Source: Amoebidium appalachense (taxonomy: Eukaryota; Protista; Ichthyosporea). Taken from it: a stretch of DNA of 5,370 nucleotides. The translations under genes and the position numbers were made by a program. Location: positions 1 through 5,370 of the forward strand of contig CAVNZM010000125.1 in NCBI GenBank assembly GCA_963693365.1. The letters run 5' to 3'. Every line of letters begins with the position of its first letter. The stretch's first letter is position 1. Positions 1 through 5,370 of the stretch are shown here, one piece after another. Under the pieces are notes generated by a model. It was not told the origin of the DNA and ran no database searches. It saw only the letters and a list, made by a program, of their open reading frames with translations.

Positions 1-70
1 GGGGGGAGCCAGGTATTATTTGTATCTTTTATTGAAATTTAATTTTAATTTATTTTCTTATTTTAATCTT

Positions 71-227
71 CATTAGTGAGGAATTTCAACACTAAGCTCG
101 TTCTAAATGCTAGGATACTCTCCTGGCTAGGAATGCTCCGGGGGGAGTTAGGTATTATAGCTAAACCTTAAATTGACAGTGACCATTTTTCAGCTATTTA
201 AGTGAGACAAAGTTTGTTACATGCACC
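71..227. repeat. Structured direct repeat, copy A (period 216 bp)
   Basis: Colinear with 287-442: cattagtgag..aatttcaa..taaatg..atactctcc..gggggagttaggtatt..gacagtga..ttttcagc.attta..ttacat.cacc. A partial third copy (ggggggagccaggtattat) lies at 1-19. Confidence 0.9.
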
Positions 228-286
228 TTATTTTCAAGTAAAATTTAGTGTATTTTCATAGCAAGTTTATTCCTTTTCTTAACCGC

Positions 287-442
287 CATTAGTGAGTAAT
301 TTCAATACTTAGCTCTAACTAAATGGTAGAATACTCTCCGGGTTAGCTTGCTTCCAGGGGGAGTTAGGTATTCGAGCTAAATCTTTAAATGACAGTGAGC
401 ATTTTCAGCCATTTACTAAATACAAAAATTATTACATTCACC
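287..442. repeat. Structured direct repeat, copy B
   Basis: Diverged copy of 71-227. It ends next to the 3' end of the SSU rRNA. Confidence 0.9.
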
Positions 443-449
443 CAAGGAC

Positions 450-2045
450 ACTCCTGATTCCTGCACGATCCCATGCGAGTTTGGGCTCCTCAGAGTCCAA
501 ATTCACCTTGTACGAGTAAGGAGAATTTTCCAAGAGTCTCTAAAAAGCCTTCTCGCTAAGAGAAGAGTCTTATGCTCTTGTCATCATACGACGACAAGCT
601 CGTTGGAAACTCGCAACTCGCATTCTGAGCCAAAGAATGTAGCATCCATGCCTTCTATACTCTTAAACATGAGTTTATTAAGATTCTACGTTTTGATCTA
701 CAAGGCTCTCATACCATTAATACACGAGTGTTAGGACTCCATGACTGCTTCAGGTTGTTGGTGTACTCTATTCCGCTGAGACATGTCAGCGGACTGACGA
801 AAACCTGGCTGCATTAACTGTCGTGGTGCAAGATTTCTTCCAGGTGGAACGAATAGTCTTAATGTTTACATCAAGAGCTATCTCTTACTTTCGTGGGTAC
901 ACTCCGGGTGTGACTATTAGCTTTATTCTCTTTATTACCTTACAACTTCTTTATCTCGATTCTCCTTACGGATCAACGTTTACCTAGAATGGGCATCCCC
1001 GATATTTTTCTTGCGCTTATACTACGATACTACACATGGCACTTCATACCGTTTGCAGCTCAAGCATTGTTCACCAGAAGACCTCGTGGAGGGTTTCAGT
1101 TAATTCTTCCAGTATATACAATTGACTTATGTGACCTCTTTACATAGCCCGTGTCATTGTTTGGGTTCCAAACCTAATATTACAATTATTAGTGGTTTTA
1201 CTTCTGAGACGCAAAAGCCTACTAGACAAATTTCACAACGACTTATTTAAGATCACAAATACTAGGCTTGCGGATAGTACTAGACTATTAGATTAGTAGC
1301 AGACTCGATGATTATACCTCCAATACACAAATGTATGCTTTTCTCTTACAACCTTATTTACGCGCGTAGTTTACACTTACTTATACCAGAACTAACTAGA
1401 GGCTACCCATTAGCTAAAGGAATTTACCGCTTCCAGCTTTTATAGAGTTTTTATCTGTTGATCTGGAAACTTCTAATTCATTTATTCAATCGACTTGTGA
1501 GACATTGATCCTGTCATTGAGTTCAGCATGCATTCCAACTACTCTTTTAGGCCTAGCATATTAGTAATGTAGCCAAAATTAATTACTAAATTAGCGGCTT
1601 TTTATGGCACTTATAAATCTTCATTCAATGTATTATCTTAGTTTGGATCTTGAAGTATTGAGTAATCTATACAAGTAACATTCTGTAGCTATAACACCAA
1701 GTTGGTAATGCACTAGTCTTGGGAGTGCCTTTCGACTTTGCTAACTAGCTCAATCTGGGGTTCACCCTACATTCTTAATCTATTTATATATGCAATCCTT
1801 TACTTTTTCTGGTACAGATAAGAGGATTAGGTAGTAACTCTTTACCATCCTATGTGCTCCAATCTAAACTTGATACACCTCTCGAGCCGCGTCGGTGCAA
1901 TATTACTTGAGAGCTCTTGTTCCAATATTAATCTAACACCAATAGCTCATGATCGCACTATCAGTAATCTTGGGACTTGAACTCGTCCACGTGGTTAATC
2001 TTACGATATCTATTTACGAGACCTACTAGTTGCTAATACTATTGT
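450..2045 (-). rRNA. rns: Highly divergent small-subunit rRNA, mitochondrial type; ends approximate
   Basis: Degenerate antisense SSU landmarks occur in the correct order over ~1.6 kb: tcaccttgtacga (~503; cf. TACCTTGTTACGA), ccattaatacacgagtgt (~714; cf. CCATTGTAGCACGTGTGT), ctgacgaaaacctggctgca (~794; cf. CTGACGACAGCCATGCAGCA), aagatttcttc..cgaat (~830), cgtttac (~977), attcttccag (~1103), atttcacaacgactta (~1230), tttacgcgcg (~1357; 530 loop), attccaactact (~1532), ctaactagctcaatc (~1741; cf. CCAACTAGCTAATC), gacttg..gtggttaa (~1974-1998). Confidence 0.8.
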
Positions 2046-2269
2046 AATTAATAGTCAACTTTTTGCTTAGTTGGCTCACTACCTTATCCAATGTAGAGAA
2101 ATGTTAGTAACAAGACTTGATATGTGAACACCCAACAGACAAAAGCTAAGACTAACAACTCGTACAAAAATCCCGGATTTTATTAAAAATTTTCGAGCTA
2201 GGCATGAATAAGTGCCTGTTCCTCTCTATACTAGTAACAGCAAGTACAAAGAGATCGCCTTGGAATCCT

Positions 2270-2470
2270 GAAGGATAACAAAACATTTAAAAAAGACAAA
2301 CTTAATTTCATGTGGCTTTTCTGTTAGGCTAACAAAACATTAGCTGTTGGTACTATATATGTAGCTCTTATTACTTGGTGATTCTTTCCTAGTATGATAG
2401 AGTACTTTCAATTTTGAGACCCCTAATTTGACACCCGTTTTATAGGTAATCAAGTACGAGAGGAAGACGA
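2270..2470 (+). rRNA. Possible divergent LSU rRNA fragment (domain V-VI-like, with sarcin-ricin loop motif)
   Basis: Exact AGTACGAGAGGAA at 2453-2465, preceded in the expected order by GGATAACA (2273), catgtggct (~2309), agctgtt (~2343) and tgagac (~2415). Matches other than the SRL are short. Confidence 0.3.
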
Positions 2471-2703
2471 AAAATAATAAAGTAGAGGGGTTATCGTTCG
2501 CCCTTATAAGATGGGGTATTACACCATTAGGTACTATATCATGAGGTACTAAAGGTTTTGAAAAGACCTTAGACCTACATGGTAGCATTGAGACATGCTA
2601 GCTAGCCAAGAATTCCTTGGTTACCGCACAAATGATGTCCTTAAATGTCACAGCGGGACGTATTCTTCTTCCAATGAAACGTATCCTTTTCACAGAGGAG
2701 AGA

Positions 2704-2900
2704 TTAATAAATGAAAATTAAGAAAGCAATTATTAACACAAATAACACCACAGCTTCAGTTAAAGCAAAACCTAAGATAGGGCTATAAAATAATTTCTAT
2801 AAATAACATTTAATAATGTTGAGAATATTATTCTAACCCCAACACCAAATAATCCAATAGTAATTAATCCTGCTACAATAAAATTAAATTCCTGTACCCT
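2704..2900 (-). pseudogene. atp9: ATP synthase subunit 9 (c) pseudogene
   Basis: One frame reads (AGG)VQEFNFIVAGLITIGLFGVGVRIIFSTLLNVIYRN. A shifted frame reads LFYSPILGFALTEAVVLFVLIIAFLIFIY*, matching the Atp9 ILGFALxEA signature. AGG stands where ATG is expected, and a frameshifting deletion follows RN. Confidence 0.9.
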
Positions 2901-2955
2901 GTTAATTAATATTTACATCTATATTCTTGAGAGAGTGAAACAAATAGCATTTTTC

Positions 2956-3021
2956 AAACTTAGCAGAACTTGAATATACAGAATTTCAAATTCTATGCTC
3001 TACTAATCGCGCTCTAATCTT
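2956..3021 (-). pseudogene. Degenerate tRNA, probably Phe-derived (loop TTTGAAA is ambiguous GAA/TGA); no insertion
   Basis: D-arm-like GCGCGATTAGTAGAGC, stem TAGAA/TTCTG, T-loop TTCAAGT. The variable loop is missing and stems carry mismatches. Confidence 0.6.
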
Positions 3022-3041
3022 TTGAGAAGGTACTATATCAT

Positions 3042-3247
3042 TAGGTATTGAAGAACTCTCGTCGGGAAGGGTCCAACTAGAGAGATCCTGCGCATTCAGG
3101 AAAAATTCTGCGTACTTAGGAGAGAGTCTGCGCACTTAGAAGGAACCTTATCGCCAGACAGAAGTCTATACTCTTGCCTTAACTGGCAAACACACCTACA
3201 GCCAAAGACTAAAAAGGTCAGTACTCTACCAATTGAACTAAATACCT
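3042..3247 (-). tRNA. trnK: tRNA-Lys(UUU) interrupted in the T-loop by the long element
   Basis: Acceptor AGGTATT/AATACCT, D-arm GTTCAATTGGTAGAGT, loop CT-TTT-TA. The anticodon stem is partly mismatched. Confidence 0.8.
3059..3192 (-). mobile_element. Long T-loop insertion (family L), 134 nt, three 20-bp subrepeats
   Basis: Homologous to 3683-3802, 4035-4174 and 4886-5004. Confidence 0.8.
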
Positions 3248-3269
3248 AAAGAAATTAATTACATAAGAT

Positions 3270-3370
3270 CGATAATACCCGGATTTTAACCCAGAACCAT
3301 TAACGTGACAAGTTGTCTTGCCGTGGTAACTATGGACGTTCCAATGCTTTACCAATTAAGTTACATTCTC
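3270..3370 (-). tRNA. trnD: tRNA-Asp(GUC) interrupted in the anticodon stem
   Basis: Acceptor GAGAATG/TATTATC. Removing 3315-3342 restores TTAAC-TT-GTC-AC-GTTAA. Confidence 0.85.
3315..3342 (-). mobile_element. 28-nt anticodon-stem insertion (family A)
   Basis: GGAACGTCCATAGTTACCACGGCAAGAC; homologous to 5159-5186 and 5302-5329. Confidence 0.8.
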
Positions 3371-3403
3371 GCACTCAATTAACTGAAGATTGAGTTTTTA
3401 ATC

Positions 3404-3513
3404 CATATATTTAAAAACTTGGTACCTACGGAAATCAACGGAACTTTCGCGGTGCTCCAACCTTCGACCGTATTTTTATGAGGAACATGCTCTAACAATT
3501 GAGCTAAATACTG
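3404..3513 (-). tRNA. trnM: tRNA-Met(CAU) interrupted in the T-loop by the short element
   Basis: GCTCAATTGTTAGAGC, CT-CAT-AA, GAAGG-TT[37]CAAGT. The first two acceptor pairs are mismatched. Confidence 0.8.
3422..3458 (-). mobile_element. 37-nt T-loop insertion (family S)
   Basis: One substitution from the consensus GGAGCACCGCGAAAGTTCCGTCGATTTCCGTAGGTAC. Confidence 0.85.
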
Positions 3514-3560
3514 AAGCTATTATTATACAAACATAATAAATCATATACGATTAAATGAGA

Positions 3561-3645
3561 TTCTTCAGAAAGGACTTGGTACCGACGGAAATCGACGGAA
3601 CTTTCGCGGTGCTCTAACCTTTAACCCTTCGTTTAACAAACAAAG
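3561..3645 (-). pseudogene. trnN: 5'-truncated tRNA-Asn(GUU) with the short T-loop element
   Basis: TTTGT-TT-GTT-AA-ACGAA, then AAAGG-TT[37]CAAGT-CCTTT-CTGAAGA. No adjacent D-arm or 5' acceptor strand. Confidence 0.7.
3579..3615 (-). mobile_element. 37-nt T-loop insertion (family S)
   Basis: Two substitutions from the consensus. Confidence 0.85.
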
Positions 3646-3665
3646 GATATAAGTGTGAATACCCG

Positions 3666-3857
3666 CCAGAAAAATAGGACTTTCGCTGGGAAGAGTCCAA
3701 CTAGCTTAGGAAAGATCCTGCGCAATTAGGAAAGATCTTGCGCACTTGAAAGTAACCTTGTCGCTAGACAGAAGTATATACTCTTGTCTTAATCAGCCAA
3801 CAAACCTATAACCTCTCATTTCCAAAATGAGTGCTCGACCAATTGCGTTATTTCTGG
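3666..3857 (-). tRNA. trnP: tRNA-Pro(UGG) interrupted in the T-loop by the long element
   Basis: CCAGAAA/TTTCTGG, CTCAT-TT-TGG-AA-ATGAG, ATAGG-TT[120]AAGT-CCTAT. Confidence 0.88.
3683..3802 (-). mobile_element. Long T-loop insertion (family L), 120 nt, two subrepeats
   Basis: Homologous to the other three L copies. Confidence 0.8.
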
Positions 3858-3886
3858 GAGATCTAGCTAAAGATTAATTAGAATAA

Positions 3887-3966
3887 CCGAATAAGGCAGA
3901 ATTCCAATCTACTGTTCCTCAATGAAGTTATTTTCAAGAGAGCTTGCTTCCAAAGCGCCTCTTTCG
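3887..3966 (-). tRNA. trnS: Degenerate tRNA-Ser(UGA), no insertion
   Basis: CT-TGA-AA loop, long variable region, GTAGA-TTGGAAT-TCTGC. Several stem mismatches. Confidence 0.65.
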
Positions 3967-4017
3967 AACATATCAAAAAGGATGTAGCATCAAGGATACA
4001 AGTATAAGAATTTGTAA

Positions 4018-4229
4018 TAAACATAATAAGACTTCCGCCGGGGAGGACCCAACTTTAGTAGGAAGGGTCCAACTAGCTTAGGAGAGATCTTGCGCACTTA
4101 GGAGAGATCCTGCGCACTTGGAAGGGACCTTGTCGCTAGACAGAAGTCTATACTCTTGTCTTAACCGACTAACAACCTTACAACAATAGTATTTGCTATA
4201 CTAGACTTTACTAATTGAGCTATATCAAC
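4018..4229 (-). tRNA. tRNA with GCA at the anticodon position (Cys-like), long T-loop element, mismatched acceptor
   Basis: GCTCAATTAGTAAAGT, TAGTA-TA-GCA-AA-TACTA, T-stem GTAAG/CTTAT. Position 33 is A rather than U, so identity is uncertain. Confidence 0.6.
4035..4174 (-). mobile_element. Long T-loop insertion (family L) with an extra 21-nt segment, 140 nt
   Basis: Standard L body at 4056-4174 plus ccgccggggaggacccaactt at 4035-4055. Confidence 0.8.
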
Positions 4230-4258
4230 AAACTAATCATACAAAGGAAGGAAGTAGA

Positions 4259-4330
4259 TGCAACATAGTGGAATTGAACCGCGATTATTGACATGAAAAA
4301 TCAAAGCCCTAACCATTAGACTAATGGTGC
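4259..4330 (-). tRNA. trnE: tRNA-Glu(UUC), uninterrupted
   Basis: GCACCAT/ATGTTGC, GTCTAATGGTTAGGGC, TTGAT-TT-TTC-AT-GTCAA, T-loop TTCAATT. Confidence 0.88.
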
Positions 4331-4351
4331 GAAGAAGAGTAAATAATAAAA

Positions 4352-4467
4352 CGAAGAGAGTGAGACTTGGTACCTACGGAAATCGACGGAACTTTCGCGG
4401 TGCTCCAACTCACGAATCCAGAATGTAAAATTAGCAATTTGAATGTTTTACCAAAAGCAATCTCTTC
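4352..4467 (-). tRNA. trnS: tRNA-Ser(GCU) interrupted in the T-loop by the short element
   Basis: Perfect acceptor GAAGAGA/TCTCTTC, TT-GCT-AA loop, long variable region, GTGAG-TT[37]CAAGT-CTCAC. Confidence 0.85.
4370..4406 (-). mobile_element. 37-nt T-loop insertion (family S)
   Basis: Consensus copy, identical to 4760-4796. Confidence 0.85.
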
Positions 4468-4509
4468 TCTATTATCTTCTTGATTATCTTTGCATTACTA
4501 GTATAGTGT

Positions 4510-4583
4510 AGTGTAAGAGTGAAGTTAAACCACTAACCTTTGACGCCACAAATCAATAATCTAACCAATTGATCTACTTACAC
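4510..4583 (-). tRNA. trnH: tRNA-His(GUG), uninterrupted
   Basis: GTGTAAG/CTTACAC, GATC/GATT D-stem, TTGAT-TT-GTG-GC-GTCAA, AGTGG-TTTAACT-TCACT. Confidence 0.92.
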
Positions 4584-4605
4584 ATAGATATGTAACACGA
4601 TAACA

Positions 4606-4715
4606 TAGAGAGAGAAGGATTTGGTACCTATGGAACTTTCGCGGTGCTCCAACCTTCGAACCTTAGAAGGATATCATTTACAGTGATACGTTATTGATCA
4701 CTCAGCTACCATCCT
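4606..4715 (-). tRNA. trnY: tRNA-Tyr(GUA) interrupted in the T-loop by a shortened S element
   Basis: TATCA-CT-GTA-AA-TGATA, variable arm CCTT/AAGG, GAAGG-TT[27]CAAAT-CCTTC. Confidence 0.85.
4624..4650 (-). mobile_element. 27-nt deletion variant of family S
   Basis: Lacks 10 nt between the two internal cggaa direct repeats. Confidence 0.85.
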
Positions 4716-4741
4716 GAAAGCAATGCTAGGTTATGTAATAG

Positions 4742-4860
4742 TATCTCTGGTGAGACTCGGTACCTACGGAAATCGACGGAACTTTCGCGGTGCTCCAACT
4801 CACAAGACTATTTATCATTGTATCCTAAGTACAATTCATTGGCCAATTCAACACAGAGAT
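4742..4860 (-). tRNA. trnL: tRNA-Leu(UAG) interrupted in the T-loop by the short element
   Basis: Perfect ATCTCTG/CAGAGAT, TTGTA-CT-TAG-GA-TACAA, long variable arm, GTGAG-TT[37]CGAGT-CTCAC. Confidence 0.9.
4760..4796 (-). mobile_element. 37-nt T-loop insertion (family S)
   Basis: Consensus copy. Confidence 0.85.
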
Positions 4861-4868
4861 GATAAACA

Positions 4869-5059
4869 AATTGATAGCAGAACTTTCGTAGGAAGGGTCC
4901 AACTAGCTTAGGAGAGATCCTGCGCACTTAAGAAAGATCTTGCGGACTTGGAAGGGACTTTGTCGCTAGACAGAAGTCTATACTCTTGCCTTAACCAGCA
5001 AACAAACCTACAGCCGTAATCTTGTAAGAATTATGCTTTACTAATTGAGCTAAACACCA
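4869..5059 (-). tRNA. trnV: tRNA-Val(UAC) with long T-loop element; acceptor strands do not pair
   Basis: GCTCAATTAGTAAAGC, TAATT-CT-TAC-AA-GATTA, GTAGG-TT[119]AAGT-TCTGC. Acceptor TGGTGTT vs TATCAAT. Confidence 0.78.
4886..5004 (-). mobile_element. Long T-loop insertion (family L), 119 nt
   Basis: Homologous to the other three L copies. Confidence 0.8.
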
Positions 5060-5095
5060 GAAGGACATAAAAGAAAATACCTATGATGAGACTTG

Positions 5096-5132
5096 GTACC
5101 TACGGAAATCGATGAAACTTTCGCGGTGTTCC
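5096..5132 (-). mobile_element. 37-nt T-loop insertion (family S)
   Basis: Three substitutions from the consensus. Confidence 0.85.
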
Positions 5133-5158
5133 AACCCATAACAAATTCATTGGAAGTG

Positions 5159-5186
5159 GTCCTGCAGTGGTAACTCTGGACGTTCC
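5159..5186 (-). mobile_element. 28-nt anticodon-stem insertion (family A)
   Basis: GGAACGTCCAGAGTTACCACTGCAGGAC. Confidence 0.8.
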
Positions 5187-5238
5187 AAATACTCTACCGA
5201 TTGAGCTACAGAAGTGTGAATAGGTACTGAAATAGCTG

Positions 5239-5275
5239 GTACCTACGGAAATCGACGGAACTTACACGGTGCTCC
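5239..5275 (-). mobile_element. 37-nt T-loop insertion (family S)
   Basis: Two substitutions from the consensus. Confidence 0.85.
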
Positions 5276-5301
5276 AACCCATAACAAGCTTATTGGAAAT
5301 G

Positions 5302-5329
5302 GTTCTGCGGTGGTAACTATGGACGTTCC
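5302..5329 (-). mobile_element. 28-nt anticodon-stem insertion (family A)
   Basis: GGAACGTCCATAGTTACCACCGCAGAAC. Confidence 0.8.
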
Positions 5330-5370
5330 AAATACTCTACCAATTGAGCTACAGAAGTGGGAATAGGTAC

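Follow-up and report, generated by a model that had tools for sequence, protein, structure and literature searches.

The window, that is, the whole 5,370-nt stretch of Amoebidium appalachense DNA analysed here (contig CAVNZM010000125.1, positions 1 to 5,370), carries on its minus strand an array of tRNA-like genes next to an atp9 pseudogene, and 12 of these tRNA-like genes are interrupted by 14 inserts, which fall into three families: A (27-37 nt), B (28 nt) and C (118-138 nt). The mitochondrial anticodon set, the long-arm tRNA-Tyr and the adjacent mitochondrial atp9 mark the array as a tRNA cluster of fungal mitochondrial type; both atp9 pieces match mitochondrial c subunits, and the N-terminal piece has fungal matches only, which are weak (E 0.03). 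The features are as follows.

about 5228..5358, minus: tRNA-Gly(UCC) copy 1 (Gly1), truncated tandem duplicate without 3' T-stem or acceptor strand
5302..5329, minus: insert B, 28 nt, Gly1 anticodon stem 29/30
5239..5275, minus: insert A, 37 nt, Gly1 T-loop 55/56
5078..5215, minus: tRNA-Gly(UCC) copy 2 (Gly2), two inserts; ARAGORN 105 after removal
5159..5186, minus: insert B, 28 nt, Gly2 29/30
5096..5132, minus: insert A, 37 nt, Gly2 55/56
4870..5060, minus: tRNA-Val(UAC), damaged acceptor stem; ARAGORN 87
4887..5004, minus: insert C, about 118 nt, Val, after position 55
4742..4860, minus: tRNA-Leu(UAG); ARAGORN 105 after removal
4760..4796, minus: insert A, 37 nt, Leu 55/56
4606..4715, minus: tRNA-Tyr(GUA), long variable arm; ARAGORN 100 after removal
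4624..4650, minus: insert A short form, 27 nt, Tyr 55/56
4510..4583, minus: tRNA-His(GUG), no insert, T-loop without C56
4352..4467, minus: tRNA-Ser(GCU); ARAGORN 100 after removal
4370..4406, minus: insert A, 37 nt, Ser(GCU) 55/56, same sequence as the Leu copy
4259..4330, minus: tRNA-Glu(UUC), no insert, the sole empty T-loop matching the A target
4018..4229, minus: tRNA-Cys(GCA), damaged; ARAGORN 80-85
4036..4173, minus: insert C, about 138 nt, Cys T-loop, one additional 20-nt unit
3887..3966, minus: tRNA-Ser(UGA)-like, no insert, degenerate; ARAGORN 82
3665..3857, minus: tRNA-Pro(UGG); ARAGORN 95
3684..3802, minus: insert C, about 119 nt, Pro T-loop
3561..3672, minus: tRNA-Asn(GUU) remnant, D-arm not recognisable
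3579..3615, minus: insert A, 37 nt, Asn 55/56
3405..3512, minus: tRNA-Met(CAU); ARAGORN 90
3422..3458, minus: insert A, 37 nt, Met 55/56
3270..3370, minus: tRNA-Asp(GUC); ARAGORN 100 after removal
3315..3342, minus: insert B, 28 nt, Asp anticodon stem 28/29
3042..3247, minus: tRNA-Lys(UUU), G at 55, U at 37; ARAGORN 92
3060..3192, minus: insert C, about 133 nt, Lys T-loop
about 2960..3023, minus: Ser(UGA)-like remnant (16th gene), degenerate, no insert
2704..2913, minus: atp9 pseudogene, split over two reading frames, central loop missing

Seven copies of A, three of B and four of C were recovered, against a chance expectation of 0.00 for each family in 200 shuffles, which bears out the 14 insertions, three families and 12 interrupted genes of a preliminary description of this DNA. 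Its placing of eleven inserts at one T-loop position also held, since 11 of the 14 begin directly 3' of U55 and the other three lie in anticodon stems; of its 16 tRNA-like genes the interrupted 12 stood, but the sixteenth (3023 to about 2960) remained uncalled by ARAGORN down to threshold 70. Gly1 duplicates Gly2 in tandem, so its pair of inserts cannot be counted separately, and 12 independent insertions across 11 isotypes remain. The probability that all 12 would fall within tRNA exons is 1e-7 for the whole window and 0.036 for the array alone, and the common insertion position is a stronger signal than this confinement to exons. A profile search of the 5.4-kb window revealed no further close copy of A, B or C (0 of 14 close copies lie outside tRNAs), so that the reported absence of copies elsewhere holds for close ones, although positions 596-481, beyond the array, may hold a weak C-like stretch of ~60% identity. 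The suspicion of a hidden Gly tRNA around it was not confirmed, since the region, scanned blind, yielded an unrelated Ala structure.

Copies are not uniform within families (A 86-100%, B 89%, C 77-91% identical), and the acceptor stem pairs across both exons at 7 of 7 positions in Leu, Ser, Pro and Lys. Both observations argue against an assembly artefact in which repeats were misjoined into tRNA genes, which we regard as very improbable, even though the array comes from one assembly and has no relative among the metagenome, viral and prokaryote collections. The exact A pattern had 0 matches in metagenome contigs, and the 60 single matches found there with a gapped A-junction pattern were all put down to chance, none having a full 5-pair T-stem or a blastn match to the window; viral contigs yielded 0 and 1 chance match, prokaryote genomes 0, and blastn searches of phages, plasmids and E. 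coli turned up at most short weak hits. These searches say little, because the collections are not eukaryote genome sets.

With the inserts in place ARAGORN called two genes, and after removal of A and B it called seven, as foreseen in the preliminary description, which had expected tRNA scanners to miss such genes. The in-silico deletion it had proposed, run here with ARAGORN, restored cloverleaves in part: five of the 12 genes passed the default threshold (Gly2, Tyr and the previously cited Leu, Ser-GCU and Asp), but lowered thresholds were needed for Pro (95), another of the cited cases, and for Lys (92), Met (90), Val (87) and Cys (80), Asn was not found above 77, a level that chance hits also reach, and no threshold tried gave a call for Gly1. 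Removal of A left a canonical T-loop at six of seven sites with no tRNA base lost, and both A and B are inserted bluntly after UU. None of their 10 junctions has any room to slide (0 nt; the figure for all 14 inserts is 0-1 nt), and a target duplication is therefore absent. The 3' boundary of C is ambiguous, and none of the parses tried restored C56; removal of C gave a canonical T-loop in no gene and brought none of the four C genes to the ARAGORN default threshold, which counts against the intron reading. Boundaries at 59/60 for A or C gave ARAGORN levels equal to or lower than those at 55/56.

Within T-loops, A occupies six of seven GTT^CRA motifs, whereas the same motif outside T-loops on the same strand carries A in none of four cases (Fisher P 0.015). 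All seven A copies can form a continuous hairpin stacked on the T-stem, the inner helix is paired in every copy that possesses it, and among six full-length copies 6 of 8 substitutions hit unpaired sites, which make up 12 of the 37 positions (P 0.017), two of the eight substitutions stemming from the dead Gly1 copy; no compensatory change was seen in this helix across the A copies. Folded alone, the inserts have no advantage over shuffles (z -1.9 to +0.7). The continuous hairpin and the distribution of substitutions could mean that A is kept in the mature tRNA as a tolerated extension of the T-arm, with the genes bearing B or C being dead. U55 and C56 contact the D-loop at the tRNA elbow, however, and a retained A would remove these contacts. 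Retention is also hard to square with the relationship between A and B, which are rotations of one ~23-nt unit: rotated A from Tyr and B from Gly1 match at 22 of 27 columns, a score equalled in 0 of 200 shuffles, the rotation being significant in only three of six pairs tested. B lies inside anticodon stems, including that of an A-bearing gene, where its retention should abolish tRNA function, and we consider the persistence of A in mature tRNAs improbable. The rotation hints at a circular intermediate; a tandem DNA array could also be its source.

The inserts were compared with the known classes of intron and mobile element. A bulge-helix-bulge (BHB) motif, defined as a 4-bp helix of exon and intron ends with 3-nt bulges on both sides at the tRNA-restoring boundary, is absent from A and B, whose junctions form 0-2 of the 4 central-helix pairs in 10 of 10 cases; read at 59/60, A gains a 4-bp helix but has a 2-nt 3' bulge. 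The C copies form 4, 3, 3 and 2 of 4 pairs at 55/56 with weak flanking helices, and 3-4 of 4 at 59/60, but there ARAGORN loses Val and Lys. Group I introns have a P3-P9 core that is at least about 100 nt long, a U before the 5' site and a terminal G, whereas A and B span 27-37 nt, end in C and have no Rfam match; C may end in G, yet it is a tandem repeat without a group I core match. Group II/III introns have GUGYG...AY ends, a domain V and a domain VI with a bulged A, whereas A and B start GGARC and finish AC, with no Rfam group II match and no consistent bulged A by inspection. Neither a target-site duplication nor an insert-end pair among the 10 inverted repeats reported points to a transposon or MITE. 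That none of the known splicing signatures sought (BHB, group I, group II) was found for A or B argues against introns.

C is built of tandem repeats, and its copies vary by 20-nt units and have drifted mostly through C>T and G>A substitutions, with no clear signal of CpG-type nuclear decay among them. A decayed tRNA or 5S fragment as the origin of C is unsupported: in a test for a t-element or SINE-like source the Cys copy matched no tRNA family in Rfam at E ≤ 10, and the best match of C to the 16 tRNAs was no better than shuffles. Kinship of C with A or B likewise found no support by sequence comparison.

The surroundings of the array bear on its condition. The preliminary description had named an rRNA and atp9 among the regions free of copies. 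The rRNA, read at 430-2700, is unsupported, with no Rfam rRNA family at E ≤ 10 and comparisons with E. coli 16S/23S reaching z ≤ 1.5, and atp9 is a pseudogene broken by a frameshift. Of the 41 stop-free fragments that reach 35 aa, 37 were scanned for protein-coding content, and none had a Pfam hit near cut-off. Lesions besides the inserts are present in Val, Cys, Asn, Lys and Gly1, which speaks against the intron reading, as does the lack of visibly higher conservation in exons than in inserts (between the two Gly copies 6 of 69 positions have changed outside the inserts, and 8 of 65 within them). From the damaged exons, the truncated Gly1 duplicate, the frameshifted atp9 and the unsupported rRNA we conclude that this copy of the cluster is decaying.

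Such decay would also suit repeats that are never spliced, that is, a non-autonomous element striking T-loops and anticodon stems, or homology-guided gene conversion between tRNA genes, inactivating genes that tRNA import, or the earlier death of the cluster, had made dispensable. This is a substantial possibility, with which the C>T and G>A drift and 20-nt unit variation of C, the likeness of Leu and Ser over T-arm plus insert (53 of 54 nt) and the slightly greater similarity of 5' flanks among family-matched genes (0.57 vs 0.48, P 0.034) are consistent, but the flank signal disappears when A and C targets only are compared (73/210), the same DNA motif carries no insert where it occurs outside T-loops, and no driver of spread was detected within the window. 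Mitochondrial RHE, DHE and GC clusters are likewise short, GC-richer, hairpin-forming repeats in organelle DNA and stay in the RNA (PMC2800124, PMC2670323); as far as these sources go, however, they lie mainly in spacers and other tolerant sites and shun structurally important ones, the opposite of close A, B and C copies that all sit in tRNAs at fixed positions, and the 5.4-kb window displays neither intergenic spread nor strong self-folding of this kind.

With a probability of roughly 0.45 we favour the reading that the inserts were short mobile introns, removed from precursor RNA while the cluster worked and spread through an excised, probably circular RNA, in a copy that is now decaying. 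In its favour stand the blunt A and B junctions, the T-loops regained on removal of A, the T-loop preference of A, the place of B in anticodon stems, the A/B rotation, the substitution bias of A and the comparable introns of Thermoproteales. The choice between introns and a selfish element posed in the preliminary description thus still has both sides alive, but it had overlooked the decay of the cluster, the A/B rotation and the imprecision of C. If the sequence patterns have been read correctly, the target would be the folded tRNA rather than a bare DNA motif, and some nuclease and ligase would act at 55/56 or within the anticodon stem to cut there, directed by the junction helix and not by a standard bulge-helix-bulge. 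The excised piece may then circularise, reopen at either of two points to give A or B, enter another tRNA and, through either reverse transcription or gene conversion, become fixed at the DNA level, whereas C would be a separate, older element with an eroded junction. Loss of cluster function would have come later, as a relic, a transferred copy or a set replaced by import. We hold more tentatively that A and B represent an undescribed class of 27-37-nt mobile mitochondrial tRNA introns without ribozyme core or BHB, cut at U55/C56 and in the anticodon stem, circularising and reinserting in rotated form, so that most tRNAs would have depended on an organellar splicing activity.

Splicing of these inserts would imply an undiscovered mitochondrial activity that cuts and joins RNA, and would make the rotated A/B pair a direct handle on tRNA intron movement, whose mechanism one review describes as unknown; if unspliced, they would reveal a selfish element that strikes one tRNA position with base precision and would record the loss of an organellar tRNA set. 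As standard finders detect two of the 16 genes, comparable arrays could pass as 'tRNA genes lost'.

Our literature search, with subscription papers mostly outside its reach, found no description of an array like that of A, B and C. The prevailing view is that organelles have no short protein-spliced tRNA introns. The case of Mycogone perniciosa is said to comprise two introns, with no array-wide invasion. A review mentions it as a previous finding of fungal mitochondrial tRNA introns that belong to no assigned class (Deng et al. 2021, via PMC8393795, as summarised there). Another statement in a review describes organelles as without tRNA introns of the archaeal or eukaryotic type, which counts against introns here. 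A fungal mitochondrial fragment transferred into orchid mitogenomes, where fungal-type tRNAs stand beside pseudogenised protein genes (PMC11827590), offers a possible model for the context, although the accessible text describes no interrupted tRNAs. Short T-arm introns in a eukaryote are shared with the Guillardia theta nucleomorph and the Cyanidioschyzon merolae nucleus, and excision of the D- and T-arm introns of G. theta was demonstrated by RT-PCR, by a mechanism given as unknown (PMC4090602, PMC13578239); those introns are nuclear or nucleomorph, however, and in the parts of these sources available no single repeated family over many isotypes is described. In Thermoproteales, near-identical introns occupy non-canonical positions in different tRNA isotypes (Fujishima et al. 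2010, via PMC4090602, PMC4033280). These archaeal introns are bounded by BHB motifs, whereas A and B have none at the restoring boundary and lie in a mitochondrial-type setting, and 55/56 is not among the positions as described in the accessible text; yet, as far as that text goes, the transposed introns of Thermoproteales resemble the present array in their short, near-identical inserts, their varied isotypes, their placement at 29/30 and in the T-arm and the double interruption of some genes.

The preliminary description had reported repeated, tRNA-specific insertions, and this proved correct: the inserts fall into three families, A, B and C, at counts above chance, and every A and C copy starts directly after T-arm position 55. 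Like the tRNA array itself, they lie on the minus strand of the window:

Family A: minus strand, 7 copies, 37 nt each (27 nt in Tyr)
Family B: minus strand, 3 copies, 28 nt
Family C: minus strand, 4 copies, 118-138 nt

B is located between tRNA positions 29/30 in the Gly genes and 28/29 in Asp. Shuffle comparison gave a chance expectation of none for such families, and profile searches of the window found no further close copies. In the unedited window, ARAGORN and Rfam detected only His, Glu and, weakly, Asp. Gly1, a truncated tRNA-Gly(UCC) copy (5228..5358), is a 143-nt tandem duplicate lacking the 3' end, and independent insertions are therefore counted as 12, in 11 isotypes. The breakpoint of this duplication (window 5228-5238) lies exactly at the end of insert A, with 5-nt microhomology, and given this placement insert A may have seeded the Gly rearrangement. 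We conclude that the insert pattern is real and unusual.

The accompanying claim that cloverleaves are restored on insert removal did not hold for every gene. In silico removal raised the ARAGORN default calls from 2 to 7, and restoration was graded by lowering the ARAGORN threshold stepwise on the insert-free genes:

ARAGORN level at which each insert-free gene is called
105: Gly2 (second, doubly interrupted tRNA-Gly(UCC) copy, 5078..5215), Leu
100: Tyr, Ser-GCU, Asp
95: Pro
92: Lys
90: Met
87: Val
80: Cys

On the same stepping, insert-free Asn was called at 77, a level that chance hits also reach, and Gly1 without its inserts gave no call at any threshold.

A and B are both preceded by UU and end in AC, without target duplication, and begin with GGARC, the first base being altered in one A copy. 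Removal leaves a canonical T-loop at six of the seven A sites, the seventh being the truncated duplicate. T-loops with the motif GTT^CRA are filled by A in 6/7 cases, whereas identical motifs elsewhere on the array strand are filled in 0/4 (Fisher P 0.015), indicating that the bare DNA motif is insufficient. In the fold predicted in context, the A hairpin can stack on the T-stem, with both junctions 1 base pair apart inside a 4-bp helix. Among the six full-length A copies (Tyr left out), 6/8 substitutions fall at unpaired positions (P 0.017), two of the eight belonging to the dead Gly1 copy, and no compensatory change was found within insert A. A and B have two modules in common, in swapped order: rotated A from Tyr matches B from Gly1 in 22/27 columns (as good in 0/200 shuffles), and the rotation reaches P<=0.05 in 3/6 A-B pairs. 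The best reading is that A and B represent a single unit of ~23 nt with two opening points. In an uninterrupted Ser(UGA)-like gene, the start of the T-loop (3905-3912) resembles the A junction, with G at 56; this may have arisen by a single substitution, or an alternative cut may have produced it.

Family C, for which relatedness to A, B or tRNA was not detectable, has a unique ~55-nt head followed by a tail of 20-nt tandem units of variable number. C removal did not restore C56 at any boundary tested. At its 3' end, C can form 4, 3, 3 and 2 of 4 pairs with the target T-stem or, if the insert is read at 59/60, pair with the insert start instead; both pairings resemble a bulge-helix-bulge (BHB), the splicing-endonuclease signature, yet are incomplete. 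C>T and G>A changes account for most of the drift among the copies. A possible diverged fifth copy, about 60% identical, lies at window 481-596 (minus strand); all four C queries picked this locus under the first scoring, and against shuffles the match was significant for Pro (0/200), borderline for Cys and Lys and not significant for Val. Inspection by eye shows a D-arm and anticodon loop resembling Gly(UCC) just upstream, but no tRNA around the locus was confirmed by a splice scan.

The atp9 sequence beside the array (2704..2913, minus strand) is a pseudogene, readable only in two frames. Aligned to mitochondrial c subunits, the first piece covers residues 8-38, with weak matches to fungal c subunits only, and the second covers about 45-72; the central loop is missing. 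The 2.3 kb previously read as rRNA lost that assignment, having no Rfam rRNA match, resembling E. coli 16S and 23S no more than shuffled sequence does, and giving no Pfam hit near cut-off in the 37 of 41 fragments scanned; its strong folding signal is confined to 2501-2650. For the two kilobases at 430-2500, both an rRNA and a recognisable protein gene were rejected on the Rfam, E. coli 16S/23S and Pfam comparisons. Lesions that have nothing to do with the inserts are present in several tRNA exons. Because of the pseudogene, the unsupported rRNA and these lesions, we conclude that this is a decaying cluster of a mitochondrial and probably fungal type. The anticodon stems of Glu (4259-4330) and His (4510-4583) are identical, and U replaces C61 in Val, Met, Lys, His and Ser(UGA); either decay or U-to-C editing could account for this. 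Two further features were recorded:

28-442, stub at 1-19: tandem 216-nt repeat, 76% identical
2501-2650, plus strand: run of short hairpins, folding z -5.1

The 216-nt repeat is unrelated to A, B or C and has no Rfam match or folding signal; by eye it contains Phe(GAA)- and Leu-like arm fragments, and might represent decayed tRNAs with a fourth insert. Folding of the hairpin region was not significant on the minus strand over a longer stretch, and a stretch of 26 nt within it (2529-2554) is similar to the Lys gene at its 3' end (3028-3053).

We favour the inserts as candidate mobile introns, with a probability of roughly 0.45 from the sequence, because insertion is base-precise without loss or duplication and depends on T-loop context, B sits inside anticodon stems, the spread covers 11 isotypes, and the rotated A/B unit is explicable by an excised circle. 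An insert would be cut out of a tRNA precursor, circularise and re-enter another tRNA, the re-inserted copy then becoming fixed in DNA. A close rival, to which we give a substantial though minority chance, holds that the cluster is dispensable and that the inserts are a targeting repeat that is not spliced, or a gene-conversion cassette; it is suggested by the want of any known splice signature, the imprecise C boundaries, and exon drift about equal to insert drift (the Gly duplicates differ at 6/69 positions outside and 8/65 inside the inserts). Equal drift is, however, likewise expected of real introns in a later-abandoned copy, and the window thus does not separate introns from unspliced repeats. 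The T-arm plus insert of Leu and Ser share 53/54 nt, suggesting a contribution from conversion whichever model holds; flank similarity between genes is weak overall.

Group I, II or III introns were ruled out as the identity of A and B by Rfam and by boundary rules in the published excerpts available. As far as the available portions of the sources describe them, the pattern works like the transposed tRNA introns of Thermoproteales (PMC4090602, PMC4033280) and is reminiscent of T-arm introns in the Guillardia nucleomorph (PMC4090602, PMC13578239), but A and B lack the BHB and therefore fall outside this intron family. The insert distribution is the reverse of that of mitochondrial hairpin repeats, which, in the sections available, keep clear of important sites and are not cut out (PMC2800124, PMC2670323). 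Orchid mitogenomes illustrate that fungal tRNAs can end up beside dead protein genes after transfer (PMC11827590). No comparable interrupted tRNA array was found in the literature searched, and the inserts match no tested family. On the basis of one decaying copy, they are best classed as a new form of either mobile tRNA introns or repeats targeted to tRNAs, in a setting of organelle type. The nearest precedent may be Deng et al. 2021, cited in a review (PMC8393795) for possible tRNA introns in fungal mitochondria that belong to no known category.
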